Source: Promethearchaeota archaeon (lineage in GTDB: Archaea; Asgardarchaeota; Lokiarchaeia; Sigyniarchaeales; SOKP01). Taken from it: 64,000 nucleotides of DNA. The notes beneath the pieces are model-generated. The model was given only the letters and a program-made list of their open reading frames with translations. It searched no databases and was not told the DNA's origin. The DNA lies in the NCBI GenBank assembly GCA_048937405.1, contig JBHLNF010000001.1, positions 688,785 to 752,784 of the forward strand, written 5' to 3'. A program made the position numbers and the translations under genes. Position 1 is the first letter of the stretch; each line of letters opens with the position of its first letter. Shown here piece by piece: positions 31,359 to 38,415 of this stretch.

Positions 31359-33434
31359 ATGCCTATTAAAATCACTGAATTTTTAGAGGAAAAATCCAAT
31401 ATAATAAGAAAAAAGGATTTAAAGAAGACAACCAATTTAAAACAGGTTTTTACGTCAATTAATCAGCATCTCTATGGAAAATTAAAGCATACTGATACTG
31501 ATACTAGAGCTCGTTCTAAACAGATAGTGAATCTCTTACTTTGTAAATTAGTTGATGAAATGTCTAAGAAAGCTGAAGAAGAAGTAGAATTTTGCATAAG
31601 ACTTGGAGAATCTGATCAAGACTTACTCAAAAGAATTGAAATTTTTTTCAATGAGAATGTAAGAGAGAAATTTAACGAGGTTATGAATGAAAACGAGCAA
31701 ATAATGTTGACAAAGGAACTTGTTTATATGGTTGTTCAAGAATTACAAGAGATTTCACTTCTTAATTCATCTAAAGACATTTTGAGTGATGCTTTCGAAA
31801 TTTTTGTTAGTAAAATCTTAAAAGATGAGGGAGGACAGTTTTTTACACCTCCCAATGTCGTGAATTTCATGGTTAATTATTTGAATCCTCAAAATGATTC
31901 AAAAATTTTAGATCCTGCCTGTGGCCACGGTGGTTTTCTTCTTGAAATAAAAGATCTTATATGGTCAAAAATAAAATTGAAGGAAAAAAGAATTAAATCT
32001 ATTTCGAATCTATATGGTATTGATAAGGATCTTTTTTTAGCGAAGATAAGTAAATTATACTTAGAAATATTAAGTAATGGAAAATCAAATATATTTTGTG
32101 AAGATTCATTAGATCCAAAAAGTTATAGATCTCCAGCAAAAAACTTAATAAAAAATGATAGTTTTGATTATATCTTTACTAATCCTCCATTTGGAGTTAA
32201 AATTCCTATAACTTATAAAAATATCTTAAAAGACTACCAATTAGCGCATATTTGGAAAAACCTCGACGACAAGTGGGAAATGCAAAATAAAATATTAAAG
32301 CAACAATCACCTCAAATTTTATTTATTGAAAGATGTGTCCAATTACTCAAGACAGGTGGTAAACTGGGGATTGTCTTACCAGAAGGAATATTTGGAAATG
32401 TAACAGATCGCTATATATGGGAATTTTTAACCTCTCAAGGCAAAATTTTAGGTATCATTTCTTTAGATCAGAACACATTCCAACCATACACATGTAACAA
32501 AGCAAGTATTCTATTCTTTCAAAAATTAAATGAACTTCCAGAAGATTATACAATTGATTTTGCACTTGTAGAAAATGTTGGTCATGATAAAGATGGAAAA
32601 GTCTTATATAAATTGAATAAAAATGGGAGCAAAAAGCTAGATTCTAATGGAAATGAAATCGTCAATGATGATCTTACAGATTTACATTTAAGATTAAATG
32701 AATCTGAAGAGTTTAACTATTTAAAGGAGCAAAAAGTATTTAAAATAAAATTTAGTCAAATTAAAAATAAGATTTTTATCCCTGTTTATTATATTGGTGT
32801 AGAAAAAATATTAAAGAAGCTTGCGGATGATAATAATTTCACTCTTTTTACTATTAAAGATTTGATAAAAAAAAAAATAATTTATTCTAATAAAGGTGGT
32901 TATCTCCCTCGAGGAGACGAGATTGGTTCAAAGCTATATGGATTGGGAGATATTCCTTTTATTCGAACTAGCGAATTAAACAACTGGGAAATAAATTTAT
33001 ATTCTTATAAAAAGACTAGTGAAGAGGTTTATCAACAGTATAAAGATAAGCAAAATATAGAAATTGGAGATATATTATTGGTTAAAGATGGAGGTCCAAA
33101 TTTAATTGGAAAGACGGCTTATATCACAGAATTGGACACTAAAATAATCATTCAAAGTCATATTTTCCAGATTAAGACCATAAAAAACGATGAAAATATT
33201 GATCCTTACCTTTTATTATATCTATTTAATTTAGATGTCGTTCAAAAACAGATTCAAGCAATTACATTCGTTCAAGGTACAATTGCCACTATTGGGAATC
33301 GAATTATGGAAGTTGTTCTGCCAATCCCCGTTGATATTAATAAAAGGAAGGATATTTCAAGCACTATTAAGAAAATCATTGAGCAAAAAACGGAGATAAG
33401 GAAAAAAATAAACAATTTGTCTTTAACCTTGTAA
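31359..33434 (+). CDS. N6-adenine DNA methyltransferase fused to a C-terminal HsdS-like target recognition domain
   Basis: GQFFTP, LDPACGHGGFL, NPPF, GIVLPEG; C-terminal IPFIRTSEL, GDILLVKDG, GKTAYI, LPIP. Confidence 0.85.
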   Translation: MPIKITEFLEEKSNIIRKKDLKKTTNLKQVFTSINQHLYGKLKHTDTDTRARSKQIVNLLLCKLVDEMSKKAEEEVEFCIRLGESDQDLLKRIEIFFNENVREKFNEVMNENEQIMLTKELVYMVVQELQEISLLNSSKDILSDAFEIFVSKILKDEGGQFFTPPNVVNFMVNYLNPQNDSKILDPACGHGGFLLEIKDLIWSKIKLKEKRIKSISNLYGIDKDLFLAKISKLYLEILSNGKSNIFCEDSLDPKSYRSPAKNLIKNDSFDYIFTNPPFGVKIPITYKNILKDYQLAHIWKNLDDKWEMQNKILKQQSPQILFIERCVQLLKTGGKLGIVLPEGIFGNVTDRYIWEFLTSQGKILGIISLDQNTFQPYTCNKASILFFQKLNELPEDYTIDFALVENVGHDKDGKVLYKLNKNGSKKLDSNGNEIVNDDLTDLHLRLNESEEFNYLKEQKVFKIKFSQIKNKIFIPVYYIGVEKILKKLADDNNFTLFTIKDLIKKKIIYSNKGGYLPRGDEIGSKLYGLGDIPFIRTSELNNWEINLYSYKKTSEEVYQQYKDKQNIEIGDILLVKDGGPNLIGKTAYITELDTKIIIQSHIFQIKTIKNDENIDPYLLLYLFNLDVVQKQIQAITFVQGTIATIGNRIMEVVLPIPVDINKRKDISSTIKKIIEQKTEIRKKINNLSLTL

Positions 33435-33521: not shown

Positions 33522-33743
33522 TTAAACATATCGAACTTTTATTTCCACTGAAGATATATCATCTATTCGTATTATTGAATCATAATAAGATCTATTACCC
33601 TTTTGTTCCAGAATCAAACAAAATTGCCCAACTTCCTTAATAGTTCCCAAATATTCCTTCCCGGAGTTAAGTATAATATATACTTCCTTAGTCTGAAGCT
33701 TTGTTAAGTAATCCTTTATTGTGTAATTTTCATTATATTCCAT
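33522..33743 (-). CDS. Small Sm/LSm/Hfq-fold-like protein
   Basis: Helix followed by KEVYIILNSGKEYLGTIKEVGQFCLIL...IIRIDDISSV; AAGGAG SD. Confidence 0.6.
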   Translation of the reverse strand: MEYNENYTIKDYLTKLQTKEVYIILNSGKEYLGTIKEVGQFCLILEQKGNRSYYDSIIRIDDISSVEIKVRYV

Positions 33744-33801: not shown

Positions 33802-35991
33802 TTATTGTTGATGATTTCTATTTTCAAGTCTACTGATTCTTTCTCCTAAATTTTCTATTTTTCTAATTATACTGTCAAGTTTTTCATCTAACATAAGACG
33901 AAATCGTTCATATATGTCCGTAATACTCTTTTCACGTTCTTTTTTACCCATTAAATCAATTTCGCGTTTGAAATTTTCAATGTATTTATATACATCCTCA
34001 CACAATGTATCAAAATTTTCAGTATCATATTCCAAGCCTAGTTCTCTTGAAAGATTTCTTTCAGCTAAATCTGACCATTCTACATCTTTCCCTTTTAAAG
34101 GAATCACAGGAATTGAGAATTTATCCGCTAATTGTAATTCATTAGTGCAATCTACAGAATCAAAAACAGATTTGTTTGTTGCAATGAATAATACTAATTG
34201 ACATTTCTGTACTGTATCTAGCATCCATTCATCAATATTGCCCGCGAGATCTTCTTCACAGAAAAAAACTTCAGATATCTCTTTTTGTTTTTCCAGAAAA
34301 TCTACAAGAGTTCCTATCTGATATGGTTCAAAATCGATTACTGCATGAGATATAAAAACTCTTATTGTCGCTTTCTTTCTTAGATATTTTAATATTAGGT
34401 CAGGTACTTTTTGTGAAATCGTTATTTCTTCAGATTCAAATGGATTGTTGGTTAGATTCAATTCAGCAAGTTCTTTTAGAGCCCATAATTCAGTTGGTAT
34501 ATTAGTAAGTTTATTATTACTTAAATTTAGATTTTTGATGGCTGTCAAATTAATAAATGATTCTGGAAGTTCAGTTATTTGGTTATTTGAAAGGCTGACT
34601 TCCTCAAGTTTAGTGCAATTTCCAATTGAGCTTGGCAAAGATGTTATACTATTATCATTTAGGATTAAATGCCTTAAATCTTTCAATAATCCTAAATCCT
34701 CAGGCAATTGGGTTATAAATTGTCCTGTAGCACTAATTCCAATAATTTGATTTTCTTCGACTAATACCCAAAAACCATTTTGATCGGGCATTTCTCCCAT
34801 TCTTATCATAGGTTTTGCTCTTGAGGATATTTGTGGAAGCACTTTAATTAATGATTCTGGTATATCCATTAAATAAAACCAGAACATAGGCGGTAATCCA
34901 GTTATTCTTACTTTATTTGCTCTAATCTTTTTTATTGCATTAAGATTTGCTCTATAAAACTCTAAATCTTTATTTGCATATGTTAAATTCTGAAGAGTTT
35001 TTATTTCAGCTAAGAATTCTGGGATGGGATTGATATCATTACCATCTAAATTCAAATTTCTTAGCTTTTCAACATTTTTTAGTGTTTCTGGTAAAGATTT
35101 TAGGTTATTTTTTGGTAGATATAAACTTTCAAGTTTATTTAGATCTCCAATGATATCTGGTAAGGAACTTATTTGATTTTCATCAAGATATACTTCTTTT
35201 AAATTTTCTAATTTACCAAAACTATTAGGTAGAGTTGTAAGTTTATTTCTCTTTATAATTAATTGAACTAGATTTTTTAAATTACCAATATTCTCAGGTA
35301 AATATAATATTTGATTATTACTCATATCCAACCTTTTAAGATTTTTAAGGTTTCCAAAAGCCTCAGGTACAGATAATAGGGAATTCAAATTTAATTCTAA
35401 GGTTTCTAAATTTTCAAGTGTTCCAAAGTTATCTGGTAAGTATTTTAATTGATTTCTTTTCAATGTTAATCTTTTTAAACTTCTCAAATTCCCAAATGAT
35501 TCTGGCAGAGTTGTTAATTCATTGCCCCAAAGTTCAAGAACAACTAAATTTTCCAAATTTCCAAAACTATTAGGGAGCATATTTAATTTATTATTACTTA
35601 ATGTTGCAAATTTTAAATTTCTTAGATTTCCGAAACTTTCTGGTAAGGTAGCTAATTCTGTGTGCTGTATTACAAGTTCTTCTAAACTGAATAACTCCCC
35701 AAAGCTATCTGGCAAAGATTTTAATTTATAGGCTTCTAATGCAATTATTTCTCTTAGATTTTTCAAATTACCAACACTTTCTGGTAGACTTTCAAAAGCT
35801 GAAGAACTGATATTTAATTTATTTAAGGATTTTAATTCTCCAATAACATATGGAATGCTTGTTTTTTCAATACTTCCTAGATTAAGATCCACAGCATTAC
35901 TGTCATCATACTTAACTCGAGTTTCAAGAGATATACCTAACTCTTCTTCAATTTGTTTAATTATTTCTTTATCATCTGTCACTTTTTTCAA
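33802..35991 (-). CDS. Leucine-rich repeat protein with C-terminal TIR domain and coiled-coil tail
   Basis: Many 23-aa LxxLxLxxNxLxxLPxxFGxL repeats; TIR motifs VFISHA, LVLFIAT..SV.SVDCTNEL, IPVIPL. Confidence 0.88.
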   Translation of the reverse strand: MKKVTDDKEIIKQIEEELGISLETRVKYDDSNAVDLNLGSIEKTSIPYVIGELKSLNKLNISSSAFESLPESVGNLKNLREIIALEAYKLKSLPDSFGELFSLEELVIQHTELATLPESFGNLRNLKFATLSNNKLNMLPNSFGNLENLVVLELWGNELTTLPESFGNLRSLKRLTLKRNQLKYLPDNFGTLENLETLELNLNSLLSVPEAFGNLKNLKRLDMSNNQILYLPENIGNLKNLVQLIIKRNKLTTLPNSFGKLENLKEVYLDENQISSLPDIIGDLNKLESLYLPKNNLKSLPETLKNVEKLRNLNLDGNDINPIPEFLAEIKTLQNLTYANKDLEFYRANLNAIKKIRANKVRITGLPPMFWFYLMDIPESLIKVLPQISSRAKPMIRMGEMPDQNGFWVLVEENQIIGISATGQFITQLPEDLGLLKDLRHLILNDNSITSLPSSIGNCTKLEEVSLSNNQITELPESFINLTAIKNLNLSNNKLTNIPTELWALKELAELNLTNNPFESEEITISQKVPDLILKYLRKKATIRVFISHAVIDFEPYQIGTLVDFLEKQKEISEVFFCEEDLAGNIDEWMLDTVQKCQLVLFIATNKSVFDSVDCTNELQLADKFSIPVIPLKGKDVEWSDLAERNLSRELGLEYDTENFDTLCEDVYKYIENFKREIDLMGKKEREKSITDIYERFRLMLDEKLDSIIRKIENLGERISRLENRNHQQ

Positions 35992-36092
35992 ACCATTTAT
36001 ATTTTTCTAATTTTGAAATAAAAAAAAGATATTTCTTAATCTAAATTATTAATTTTGTTTTTCATTGAAAATAAACTTTAAACATTAATTAT

Positions 36093-37787
36093 TTAACTTT
36101 TTTTTTCGAGGTTTTCGATTCTATCTGTAAGACTTTTCATATTACTAGTTAATCCATCTATTTTTCTGATTACTTCACTCAGTTTCTCATCTAACATAAG
36201 ACGAAACCGTTCATAAATGTCTATTATTCCTAATCGTCGTTCCTCCTTTTCCATTAAATTAATTTCTCGCTTGAAATTTTCAATGTATTTGTATACATCA
36301 GAGCAAAATTGGTCGAAGTTATCAATATTATATTCTAATCCTAATTCCCGAGAAAGGTTTATTTCCGCCAAATCTGGCCAACCTATATCTTTACCCTTTA
36401 TGGGAATGACTGGAATAGAGAACTTATCAGCGAGCTGCAGTTCATTGGCACAATCTACGGAATTAAAAACTGATTTATTAGTCCCAATAAATAAAATTAG
36501 TTGACTCTTTTGCACAGCATTTAGCATCCACTCATCAATATTACCAGCAAGATCTGACTCACAAAAAAATACTTGAGATATTTCTTTTTGTTTTTCCAAG
36601 TATTTTACAAGCTCTTCTATGCGATAAGGCTCAAAATCGATAACTGCGTGAGATATAAAAACTATTATTGTAGCTTTCACTCTAAGGTATTCTCTAATTA
36701 AATCTGGAACTTTTTGTGAAACAACCATCTCTTCAGGATTTAGAGGATTGTTGGATAAATCTAAATCAGTAAGCTCTTTAAGTCCCCATAATTGTGTAGG
36801 GATCTCACTAAATTGGTTATTGTTAAGATTAAGATTATTAATCGACGTTAAATTAACAAAAGATTCTGGCAAAGTAGTCAATTTATTACTAGATAAATCG
36901 AGAATTTCTAAATCCTTTAATTCTCCAAAAGACTCTGGCAACGCTTCGATTTGATTACGCGAAATTATCAATGATTTTAGATTATTAAAAATTCCAAAAT
37001 TCTCTGGTAAGGATTTAATGCCATACCCAACAAATTTCCACTCCGTGACTTTACCATCCTCTACTTTTATTGCTAACCTAGATATCCTACCCTTTTTTTC
37101 ATCTTGAATGGTATCTTTTTCAATTTCACGTATGATCTCAATCTTTTCTTTAGGGAGATCATGCATTGCTTGAAACTGAAGTATAGCTGGTGCGAGTATA
37201 GTACCTCCTCTTTTATAAACACTTTTTAATACATTGAGACTTATATCATTCCATTCAAGATTATTAAATACTACTTTCAAGGTTTTTAGATTATCTAAAT
37301 TTCCTAACCATTCTGGTAAAAAATTCAAATTATTATTCTGCACATTAAGATGAGATAGGTTGTTAAGTTCCTTCATCCAATCAGGTATAGATGCTAACTC
37401 ATTAGTCTCTAGATTAAGACGGTTCAAATTCTTAAGCTCTCTCATCCATTCAGGTAATGACTTTAAATGGTTGTCCGATAAGTTTAATGATTCTAAATCT
37501 TTGAAATTTCTAATAAAATCTGGAACTTTATCAACCACTTTATATTTTAGACTTAAACCTTTTAGAGATTTAAGATTGCTCACAGAGTCATATACTTTTT
37601 GTTGATCTTGCTCAGATAAATCTAAATAATAGAAATTAATACCTATATATATTACATTATCTCCTTTAAGATAATAAAAAAATTCAGCATTATCTAAATT
37701 TTGTTCATAATAATCGTCGTGAATTTTTTTTAATTCCTTTCCTGTAAGTTTTGAGATTTCTTTAATTACTTTTAAATCATCACTCAT
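36093..37787 (-). CDS. Leucine-rich repeat protein with C-terminal TIR domain and coiled-coil tail (paralog)
   Basis: LRRs of LPEW type; VFISHA...SVDCANEL...IPVIPI; C-terminal part highly similar to the neighbour. Confidence 0.88.
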   Translation of the reverse strand: MSDDLKVIKEISKLTGKELKKIHDDYYEQNLDNAEFFYYLKGDNVIYIGINFYYLDLSEQDQQKVYDSVSNLKSLKGLSLKYKVVDKVPDFIRNFKDLESLNLSDNHLKSLPEWMRELKNLNRLNLETNELASIPDWMKELNNLSHLNVQNNNLNFLPEWLGNLDNLKTLKVVFNNLEWNDISLNVLKSVYKRGGTILAPAILQFQAMHDLPKEKIEIIREIEKDTIQDEKKGRISRLAIKVEDGKVTEWKFVGYGIKSLPENFGIFNNLKSLIISRNQIEALPESFGELKDLEILDLSSNKLTTLPESFVNLTSINNLNLNNNQFSEIPTQLWGLKELTDLDLSNNPLNPEEMVVSQKVPDLIREYLRVKATIIVFISHAVIDFEPYRIEELVKYLEKQKEISQVFFCESDLAGNIDEWMLNAVQKSQLILFIGTNKSVFNSVDCANELQLADKFSIPVIPIKGKDIGWPDLAEINLSRELGLEYNIDNFDQFCSDVYKYIENFKREINLMEKEERRLGIIDIYERFRLMLDEKLSEVIRKIDGLTSNMKSLTDRIENLEKKS

Positions 37788-37977: not shown

Positions 37978-38415
37978 ATGAAGATTGAAAAATTTACTAT
38001 AGGTTATTATGAGGAAATTGTAGCACTCTGGAGAAAAGCTGGAATCAATGTAGGCTCTTCTGATACATTAGAAGAAATTAATAAAATGCTTCAACGAAAT
38101 CCAAATCTTTTCTTGATAGGTAAGATACAAAGAAAAATTGTTAGTGTTGTAATTGGAGCATTTGATGGGAGAAGAGGTTATGTTCATCATCTTGCGGTAG
38201 ACCCAGATTATCAAAAGCAAGGATATGGGAAATTCATAATGGATGAATTATTAAAAGAGTTTCATAAAATTGGTGTGCATAAAATTCATTTGTTCATTCA
38301 AAAAAATAATAAGAATGTTGTTAAATTTTATCAGAATTTAGGATGGGAAGTCCGAGATGATTTAATAATGATGAGTTATATTCCAGATAAAAATTTATAT
38401 AAAATGACGATTTAA
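37978..38415 (+). CDS. GNAT acetyltransferase (YpeA-like)
   Basis: DGRRGYVHHLAVDPDYQKQGYG, FYQNLGW. Confidence 0.9.
   Translation: MKIEKFTIGYYEEIVALWRKAGINVGSSDTLEEINKMLQRNPNLFLIGKIQRKIVSVVIGAFDGRRGYVHHLAVDPDYQKQGYGKFIMDELLKEFHKIGVHKIHLFIQKNNKNVVKFYQNLGWEVRDDLIMMSYIPDKNLYKMTI

Follow-up and report, generated by a model that had tools for sequence, protein, structure and literature searches.

No immune module is shared more widely among bacteria, plants and animals than the TIR domain, which in animal Toll-like receptors (TLRs) and plant TIR-NLRs is combined with a repeat sensor. Among its prokaryotic representatives, the substitution W204A abolishes the NADase activity of AbTir, whereas the equivalent change leaves TcpC active, and the Trp of the WxxxE motif is most conserved among the TIRs that form cyclic ADP-ribose (cADPR) (PMC11374754). 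Archaeal TIR proteins are essentially unstudied, and our search of the literature on TIRs of Asgard archaea and Lokiarchaeota found no paper treating leucine-rich repeat (LRR)-TIR proteins of Asgard archaea. Here we analysed a stretch of 64,000 nt from a Promethearchaeota archaeon (the window; assembly GCA_048937405.1, contig JBHLNF010000001.1, positions 688,785 to 752,784 of the forward strand) that carries two such genes, referred to as gene A and gene B. We tentatively favour, at a little short of an even chance, that both encode cytoplasmic single-chain proteins joining an LRR sensor to a TIR effector, and that they belong to an accessory TIR family restricted to Loki-type archaea.

Gene A (P0002; 36093..37787, minus strand) starts with ATG and encodes 564 aa, and its paralogue gene B (P0001; 33802..35991, minus strand) encodes 729 aa from either TTG 35991 or GTG 35982. 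The latter codon is the more likely start, since the gene B orthologue in the syntenic contig L023 begins at the position of that GTG. The two genes are arranged head-to-tail with 101 AT-rich bases in between, and in a window of ~28% GC chance does not account for frames that stay open over 564 and 729 codons. Open reading frames and translations agree, and purifying selection acts on both genes, which bears out the two adjacent genes of the original prediction, made from the DNA letters alone. Their products share 50% identity over 510 residues, a value that rises to ~80% in the last 200 residues.

Pfam, AlphaFold2 (AF2) and heptad scoring concur on the domain order previously proposed, with the LRRs in front of a TIR domain and the helical tail last. 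Both proteins match LRR_8 and LRR_14 with E-values of 1e-24 to 1e-52, and their repeats share a 23-residue unit of the form LxxLxLxxNxLxxLP. In the full-length AF2 model of the gene A product (predicted local distance difference test score, pLDDT, 89.2; predicted template-modelling score, pTM, 0.71), a cap opens the chain and LRR block 1, a helical linker, a second cap and LRR block 2 come next; two helices then lead to an alpha/beta domain, and a terminal helix of 50 residues ends the chain. On the minus strand of the window, the N-terminal cap and LRR block 1 (residues 1-180, delimited by Pfam LRR_14/LRR_8, repeat listing and AF2 strand/helix periodicity) map to 37248..37787, the helical linker and second LRR cap (residues 181-262; AF2 helix 181-231 and strand 240-251) to 37002..37247, and LRR block 2 with its four repeats and connecting helices (residues 263-372; Pfam, repeat listing and AF2) to 36672..37001. 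The TIR domain (residues 373-511) occupies 36255..36671 and the long C-terminal heptad helix (residues 512-564; AF2 helix 514-563 and heptad score) 36096..36254. In gene B, also on the minus strand, the TIR (residues 542-680) lies at 33952-34368 and the same tail at 33805-33951, so that the TIR domains begin at ~36671 and ~34368, within a few bases of the previously given 36668 and 34365. Gene A has ~5 repeats in block 1 and 4 in block 2, and gene B ~11-13 and 4, block 1 being expanded; the block 2 region (gene A residues 263-372) is the LRR part best kept between both paralogues.

The best PDB matches of the full-length gene A model (Foldseek, E 1e-13 to 1e-11) were the Chlorobium Roco LRR, SHOC2 and Leptospira LRR proteins. 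As modelled, the LRRs are of the cytosolic protein-binding Roco/SHOC2 class, not of the TLR ectodomain class. Consistently with a soluble location, neither a signal peptide nor a transmembrane (TM) segment was found in either protein (maximal Kyte-Doolittle 19-residue means of 0.99 and 1.35). Walker A was absent from both in a motif check, and Pfam detected no NTPase or GTPase family; the absence of signal peptide, TM segment and P-loop had been correctly anticipated. An NCBIfam scan added only generic LRR effector-like matches far under cut-off and, for the tail, weak coiled-coil noise of the GpsB/DivIVA kind. The tail is predicted by AF2 as a single helix of ~50 residues (construct residues 149-198; gene A 514-563) in which 50-67% of the heptad a/d positions are L, I, V or M vs 17-18% at other positions, in keeping with the heptad tail noted earlier. 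At its start, Y525-E526 is invariant and F528 near-invariant in the close clade, and other clades have a longer helical tail of ~90 residues. A two-copy complex prediction of the TIR-tail construct scored 0.02, a value that, with controls not run, bears neither way on self-association.

TIR was not listed by the Pfam scan of the whole proteins, and with the C-terminal 146-205 residues scanned alone TIR_2 reached a borderline 28.1-30.5 bits, the cut-off being 28 (29.5-30.5 bits for the gene A domain); remoter paralogues of the same genome attain 44-58 bits. AF2 modelling of gene A residues 366-564 on an alignment of 110 sequences yielded a pLDDT of 93.3, and Foldseek ranked the TIRs of SARM1 and RPS4 (E 3e-5 for both) and of SPARTA best for this model. 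VIA-align superposed it on the SPARTA TIR-APAZ with Z 15.3 (root-mean-square deviation 2.4 Å, 127 residues), on RPV1, RUN1, RPS4, SARM1, TIR-1 and Hydra TRR-2 with Z 14-15, and on AbTir with Z 13.6, while DNPH1/NDT-like relatives scored below TIRs (Z 13.5). ESM-Atlas neighbours fell into TIR_2 clusters throughout, the nearest being a Promethearchaeota cluster. When PDB sequences were searched with the 110-sequence profile, the only matches were designed helical bundles, aligned to the tail, and Cat1 (E 0.44). The profile built from all 16 TIRs of the window's own genome, both proteins included, matched the solved TIRs 9m0n (4e-7), TIR-1 (2e-4), Cat1 (2.5e-4), RPS4 (5e-3) and SPARTA (5e-3). Together, the TIR_2 profile and the AF2 model sustain the TIR identity that had been proposed, and the modelled domain is a genuine TIR with a five-stranded flavodoxin-like beta/alpha fold.

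The putative catalytic Glu is conserved in both genes, as E449 in gene A (codon 36441-36443, within SVDCANEL) and E618 in gene B (codon 34138-34140), in at least 90% of the 110 family members and invariantly in the close clade. In the 16-TIR profile its column aligns to the catalytic Glu of Caenorhabditis elegans TIR-1 (VHKEL) and Cat1 (CWDEL), and the equivalence to a catalytic Glu that had been claimed therefore holds. Moreover, one paralogue elsewhere in the genome has lost this residue, which indicates that the Glu is functionally maintained where kept. It belongs to one of the three motifs of the family, namely VFISHA in box 1, CExDLxGNID in the BB-loop segment and SxxxSxDCxxEL, and S443, D445, C446 and E449 do not vary within the clade. 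By itself the Glu is no proof of catalysis; as Asp here replaces the WxxxE Trp, which AbTir needs and TcpC does not, NAD+ cleavage is plausible rather than implied.

Pairwise NG86 estimates of dN/dS yielded 0.05-0.14 for the TIR, 0.05-0.28 for the tail and 0.19-0.37 for the LRR part, and gene A remained below 0.4 in every part. Between gene A and gene B the LRR value was 0.54, at saturated dS. Column entropy in the clade was 0.63 bits for the TIR and 1.24 for the tail. Within the LRRs, x-positions were more variable on the concave than on the convex face (2.11 vs 1.80 bits, p 0.04), a weak difference among sequences that are not independent. The TIR is thus constrained and the LRRs diverge several-fold faster, a pattern that fits a sensor-effector. 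A separate peculiarity of the gene A 3' end (36096-36254) is that, against the L024/L025 orthologues, tail dS is ~1.2, ten-fold above the LRR dS of 0.11, which suggests recombination or gene conversion there.

An exhaustive HMMER scan of 1.84 billion representatives retrieved 394 relatives at E<=1e-3, 228 of them at E<=1e-10. Matches in GTDB species genomes came almost entirely from metagenome-assembled genomes (MAGs) of Promethearchaeota, the phylum of Loki-type archaea in the Asgard kingdom, and from Promethearchaeum syntrophicum MK-D1; the contigs most closely syntenic with the locus are likewise Promethearchaeota MAGs. The subfamily was present in 101/399 genomes of the GTDB phylum, including 85/133 of the window's own family and 14 of the 20 genomes from further families of that class with any hit; only one genome among the 399 carried it outside that class. 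TIR_2 at large occurred in 159/399 genomes, in multiple copies chiefly in the same class. These counts show a subfamily restricted to one Asgard class and variably present within it. A few records bear Odin-, Hermod-, Hod-, Thorarchaeota or bacterial labels, several of them suspect: L023 (JBHLQA010000077.1) bears the label 'Odinarchaeota' yet shares synteny and 93-97% identity with this Loki-type locus, and L043 (DATKTW010000024.1) and L079 (JAAKFN010000113.1), from bins labelled 'Nanopelagicaceae' and 'Anoxychlamydiales', carry an Asgard gene, probably through bin contamination.

The window's genome encodes 16 C-terminal TIR domains placed behind LRR, WD40, beta-helix and solute-binding heads, as expected of a receptor family. 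They include five close LRR-TIR-tail paralogues, an LRR-TIR protein with a PCI-like linker and a WD40-TIR protein. Five others (L015, L017-L019 and L021; G000 C13:247457-250828, C28:304170-308897, C13:195642-200558, C17:157313-160399 and C9:22470-25691) begin with a signal-like stretch, continue with a large ectodomain (SBP_bac_5, Peripla_BP_6, NosD/beta-helix or WD40) and end, after one strong TM segment, in a cytoplasmic TIR_2 domain of 44-56 bits, so that their predicted topology is Toll-like-receptor-like. Among the database representatives, some family members (P0008 and P0011) contain two or three tandem TIR domains of the subfamily within one chain. In the window's genome SIR2_2 (PF13289), of a type associated with NAD+ cleavage by defence proteins, forms a second expanded family, with seven domains in large proteins of 715-1891 aa (G000 C19:188247, C7:317424, C7:272876, C11:31714, C13:288620, C11:16507 and C25:184115). 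None of these genes lies beside the studied locus; all are >370 kb off or on other contigs.

Single-copy orthologues of gene A were found in ~27 related loci and encode 525-564 aa (586 in L041, 609 in L044). In at least 10 of these loci the gene is inserted between the same two genes as in the window, a GNAT acetyltransferase (37978..38415, plus strand; Pfam) and a fusion of an N6-adenine DNA methyltransferase with a specificity (TRD) domain (31359..33434, plus strand; Pfam N6_Mtase), which form the two borders of the insertion site. In four same-genus genomes (95-100% complete) devoid of any subfamily match the methylase adjoins the GNAT directly, at 20-110 bp, and thus marks the empty site. 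Gene A is therefore accessory: some genomes have it at a single fixed chromosomal site and others lack it there. The empty-site genomes also harbor an AMP-binding (acyl-CoA synthetase-like) gene between GNAT and NMO (L106:6585-8384, L107:6454-8238, L108:4909-6702 and L109:5308-7092); it is absent from the window, which makes the stretch a small variable hot spot.

Besides the window, only L023, L110 and a pair of Logan contigs, all close relatives, were found to carry gene B, whose TIR-tail branches within the clade of gene A orthologues. On these grounds gene B is, from its phylogenetic placement, a recent extra copy with an expanded LRR block 1, not an ancient partner. A sensor/helper pair as the general case was likewise rejected, most genomes having gene A alone.

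The locus is surrounded by CODH/ACS, a gene for a C25 peptidase, GNATs, the fusion of methylase and TRD, NMO and the his operon. The methylase was matched by the PADLOC models MTase_II/mad2 and Specificity_I, and by NCBIfam MAD2 far under the equivalog cut-off; it resembles type I/II methyltransferases, and no nuclease partner was seen near it. A defence island, which this adjacent gene might suggest, was set aside, as the methylase is a conserved orphan that recurs at 67-88% identity in related genomes with or without the LRR-TIR gene.

In the mechanism that we favour, the LRR blocks would bind a protein or another macromolecular ligand, and this binding would relieve auto-inhibition or cluster the molecules, the C-terminal helix aiding self-association. 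The assembled TIR domains would then form composite active sites cleaving NAD+, and the outcome would be NAD+ depletion or a signal in response to conflict with a virus, a mobile element or other non-self. Architecture, conserved Glu, selection pattern and accessory hot-spot behaviour all speak for this mechanism, and the lack of both the Trp and a defence context weakens it. Several observations indeed count against it. The Trp of WxxxE is replaced by an invariant Asp (D445; 22/22 and 35/35 sequences). Animal TLR TIRs retain the same Glu with no known NADase activity. Pairwise estimates disclosed purifying selection on the LRRs, not overall positive selection. PADLOC, which is bacterial in bias, had no match to the LRR-TIR proteins, whole or in parts, and neither a ThsA-like nor any other signal-receiving effector was found nearby. 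Among the 128 nearest neighbours from 41 diverse loci its matches were few and mostly generic (MTase 1-3, Csa3 2, radical-SAM/pVip-like 2, TnpB/Cas12f 1, cyclase 1), and WD40, LRR, GTPases, V-ATPase and Mut7-C were the recurrent Pfam families. The genes next to family members are thus chiefly housekeeping or encode other repeat proteins, so that guilt by association does not point to defence, and the innate-immune role advanced in the original prediction finds no support here. The minimal cytoplasmic sensor-effector that it described fares better: the TIR, the solubility, the retained Glu and the conserved effector with faster LRRs all stand. As for the chemistry, simple NAD+ hydrolysis or a non-canonical product would be likelier than 2'cADPR-type cyclisation, which the Asp in place of the Trp makes less likely; an active TIR would more probably follow a non-cyclising or non-canonical route.

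The missing Trp and the weak defence context also nourish the chief rival, a non-enzymatic TIR scaffold, which we deem somewhat unlikely. Here the TIR would serve assembly or adaptor functions, and the two proteins would be nodes of a TIR-TIR network linking the many membrane-bound and soluble TIR receptors of this genome, as in TLR/MyD88 signalling. The 16 TIR proteins, five of them with signal peptide, ectodomain, one TM segment and cytoplasmic TIR, provide candidate members of such a network, the Glu-less TIR gene elsewhere in the genome a possible partner, and the LRRs belong with the scaffold repeats of SHOC2 and Roco. However, the invariance of S443, D445, C446 and E449 goes beyond the needs of packing, and enzymatic TIRs (SPARTA, RUN1, SARM1 and AbTir) are among the closest matches in structure. 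The same LRR matches to Roco and SHOC2 could alternatively denote cellular regulators outside conflict, with the LRRs as scaffold for GTPase, cytoskeleton or membrane-remodelling factors and the TIR devoted to NAD+- or nucleotide-linked regulation. GTPases and WD40 proteins among the neighbours, synteny kept wherever the gene is present and purifying selection throughout are compatible with this role. Yet many near-complete genomes of the same genus lack the gene and have an empty site, and copy number and LRR length vary among close relatives, both atypical of core regulators, which renders this explanation distinctly unlikely.

A further alternative concerns gene B alone, 58 nt downstream of which a gene for a 73-aa Sm-like (LSM/Hfq-like barrel) protein lies on the same strand (33522..33743, minus strand). 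The two could constitute a two-component unit in which the barrel protein is a ligand, a regulator or an RNA-binding output, akin to an effector/antitoxin-like partner. Indeed, the Sm-like gene holds an identical position, ~60 nt downstream on the same strand, in all five gene-B contexts (724-729-aa type), evolves under purifying selection (dN/dS 0.14-0.24), and has diverged homologues of 42-45% identity beside two other LRR-TIR genes, in L041 (L041:4545-4757) and L044 (L044:6882-7094). The gene is single-copy in this genome and the family has a length of 72-73 aa; relatives next to gene B map to L023:4237-4458 and L110:2556-2777. We nonetheless regard a functional unit as unlikely: ~27 gene-A-type loci have no Sm-like gene within 6 kb, the five gene-B contexts are near relatives and not independent, and LSM, the best Pfam match, falls slightly under the cut-off (22.9 vs 23.4 bits).

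Beyond the single locus, these genes may be part of a TIR receptor system specific to the Loki-type Asgard lineage, in which many interchangeable heads, soluble ones such as LRR and WD40 as well as surface ones placed behind a single TM segment, feed one conserved TIR module. It would amount to an archaeal innate-immune or non-self network, independent of TLR/TNL immunity but following the same logic, and the locus would display its turnover through hot-spot insertion and deletion, duplication, LRR expansion and Sm-like recruitment; this broader proposal is rather doubtful at present. Should the two proteins be ligand-activated NAD+-cleaving sensors, as we favour, they would represent a minimal LRR-to-TIR receptor without an NTPase switch, and experiments are feasible since the cultured relative P. 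syntrophicum MK-D1 has a homologue, at locus L075. The family looks like a lineage-specific expansion of the prokaryotic TIR_2 type and bears on the convergence of immune architectures, not on the direct ancestry of eukaryotic LRR/TIR immunity. The suggested relevance to the origin of the latter finds no support in the comparison, given the one-class distribution and a TIR with no special affinity to eukaryotic TIRs in the 16-TIR profile, VIA-align or ESM-Atlas.

Compared with known systems, both proteins share TIR_2, the box-1 FISH(A), the alpha-C Glu and the fold (Z 13.6-15.3) with the prokaryotic group of AbTir, TcpC, BtpA, PdTIR, SPARTA TIR-APAZ and ThsB, and AbTir also has a coiled-coil segment attached to its TIR (bioRxiv 10.64898/2026.10.06.757174). 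Unlike in these TIR_2 proteins, the helix is here C-terminal instead of N-terminal, Asp replaces the WxxxE Trp and an LRR sensor occupies the N-terminus. SPARTA and Thoeris differ in addition by their partners, as no Ago, ThsA or other partner gene accompanies gene A and gene B, whose family is archaeal and confined to one Asgard class; PADLOC gave no ThsB match for either protein and no ThsA is adjacent. Other TIR genes of the same genome fall into the same TIR subfamily or its sister group and follow the same plan of a variable head on a constant TIR, whereas the two copies studied here both keep the Glu, stem from a recent duplication at an insertion hot spot and, in one case, are accompanied by the Sm-like gene. 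With Roco proteins and SHOC2 they have in common the 23-aa LRR with LP motif and the N-terminal cap, and they carry a TIR in place of the Roc GTPase and COR domains of Roco. Plant TIR-NLRs and bacterial TIR-STAND proteins (Avs-like, TIR-NLR) equally couple a TIR to a repeat sensor in the cytosol and offer oligomerisation-dependent TIR activity as a model, but the present proteins have neither an NB-ARC/STAND NTPase nor a Walker A motif, and their order is reversed, with the TIR at the C-terminus. The likeness to animal Toll-like receptors put forward in the original prediction persists in the order of LRR then TIR within one chain and ends there: signal peptide and membrane anchor are missing, the LRRs fall into the cytosolic class of Roco and SHOC2, and an extra C-terminal helix is present. 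We see no evidence for common descent of the LRR-TIR architecture with Toll-like receptors; the most fitting view is that of an independent variation, specific to the Loki class, on the prokaryotic combination of repeats with a TIR.

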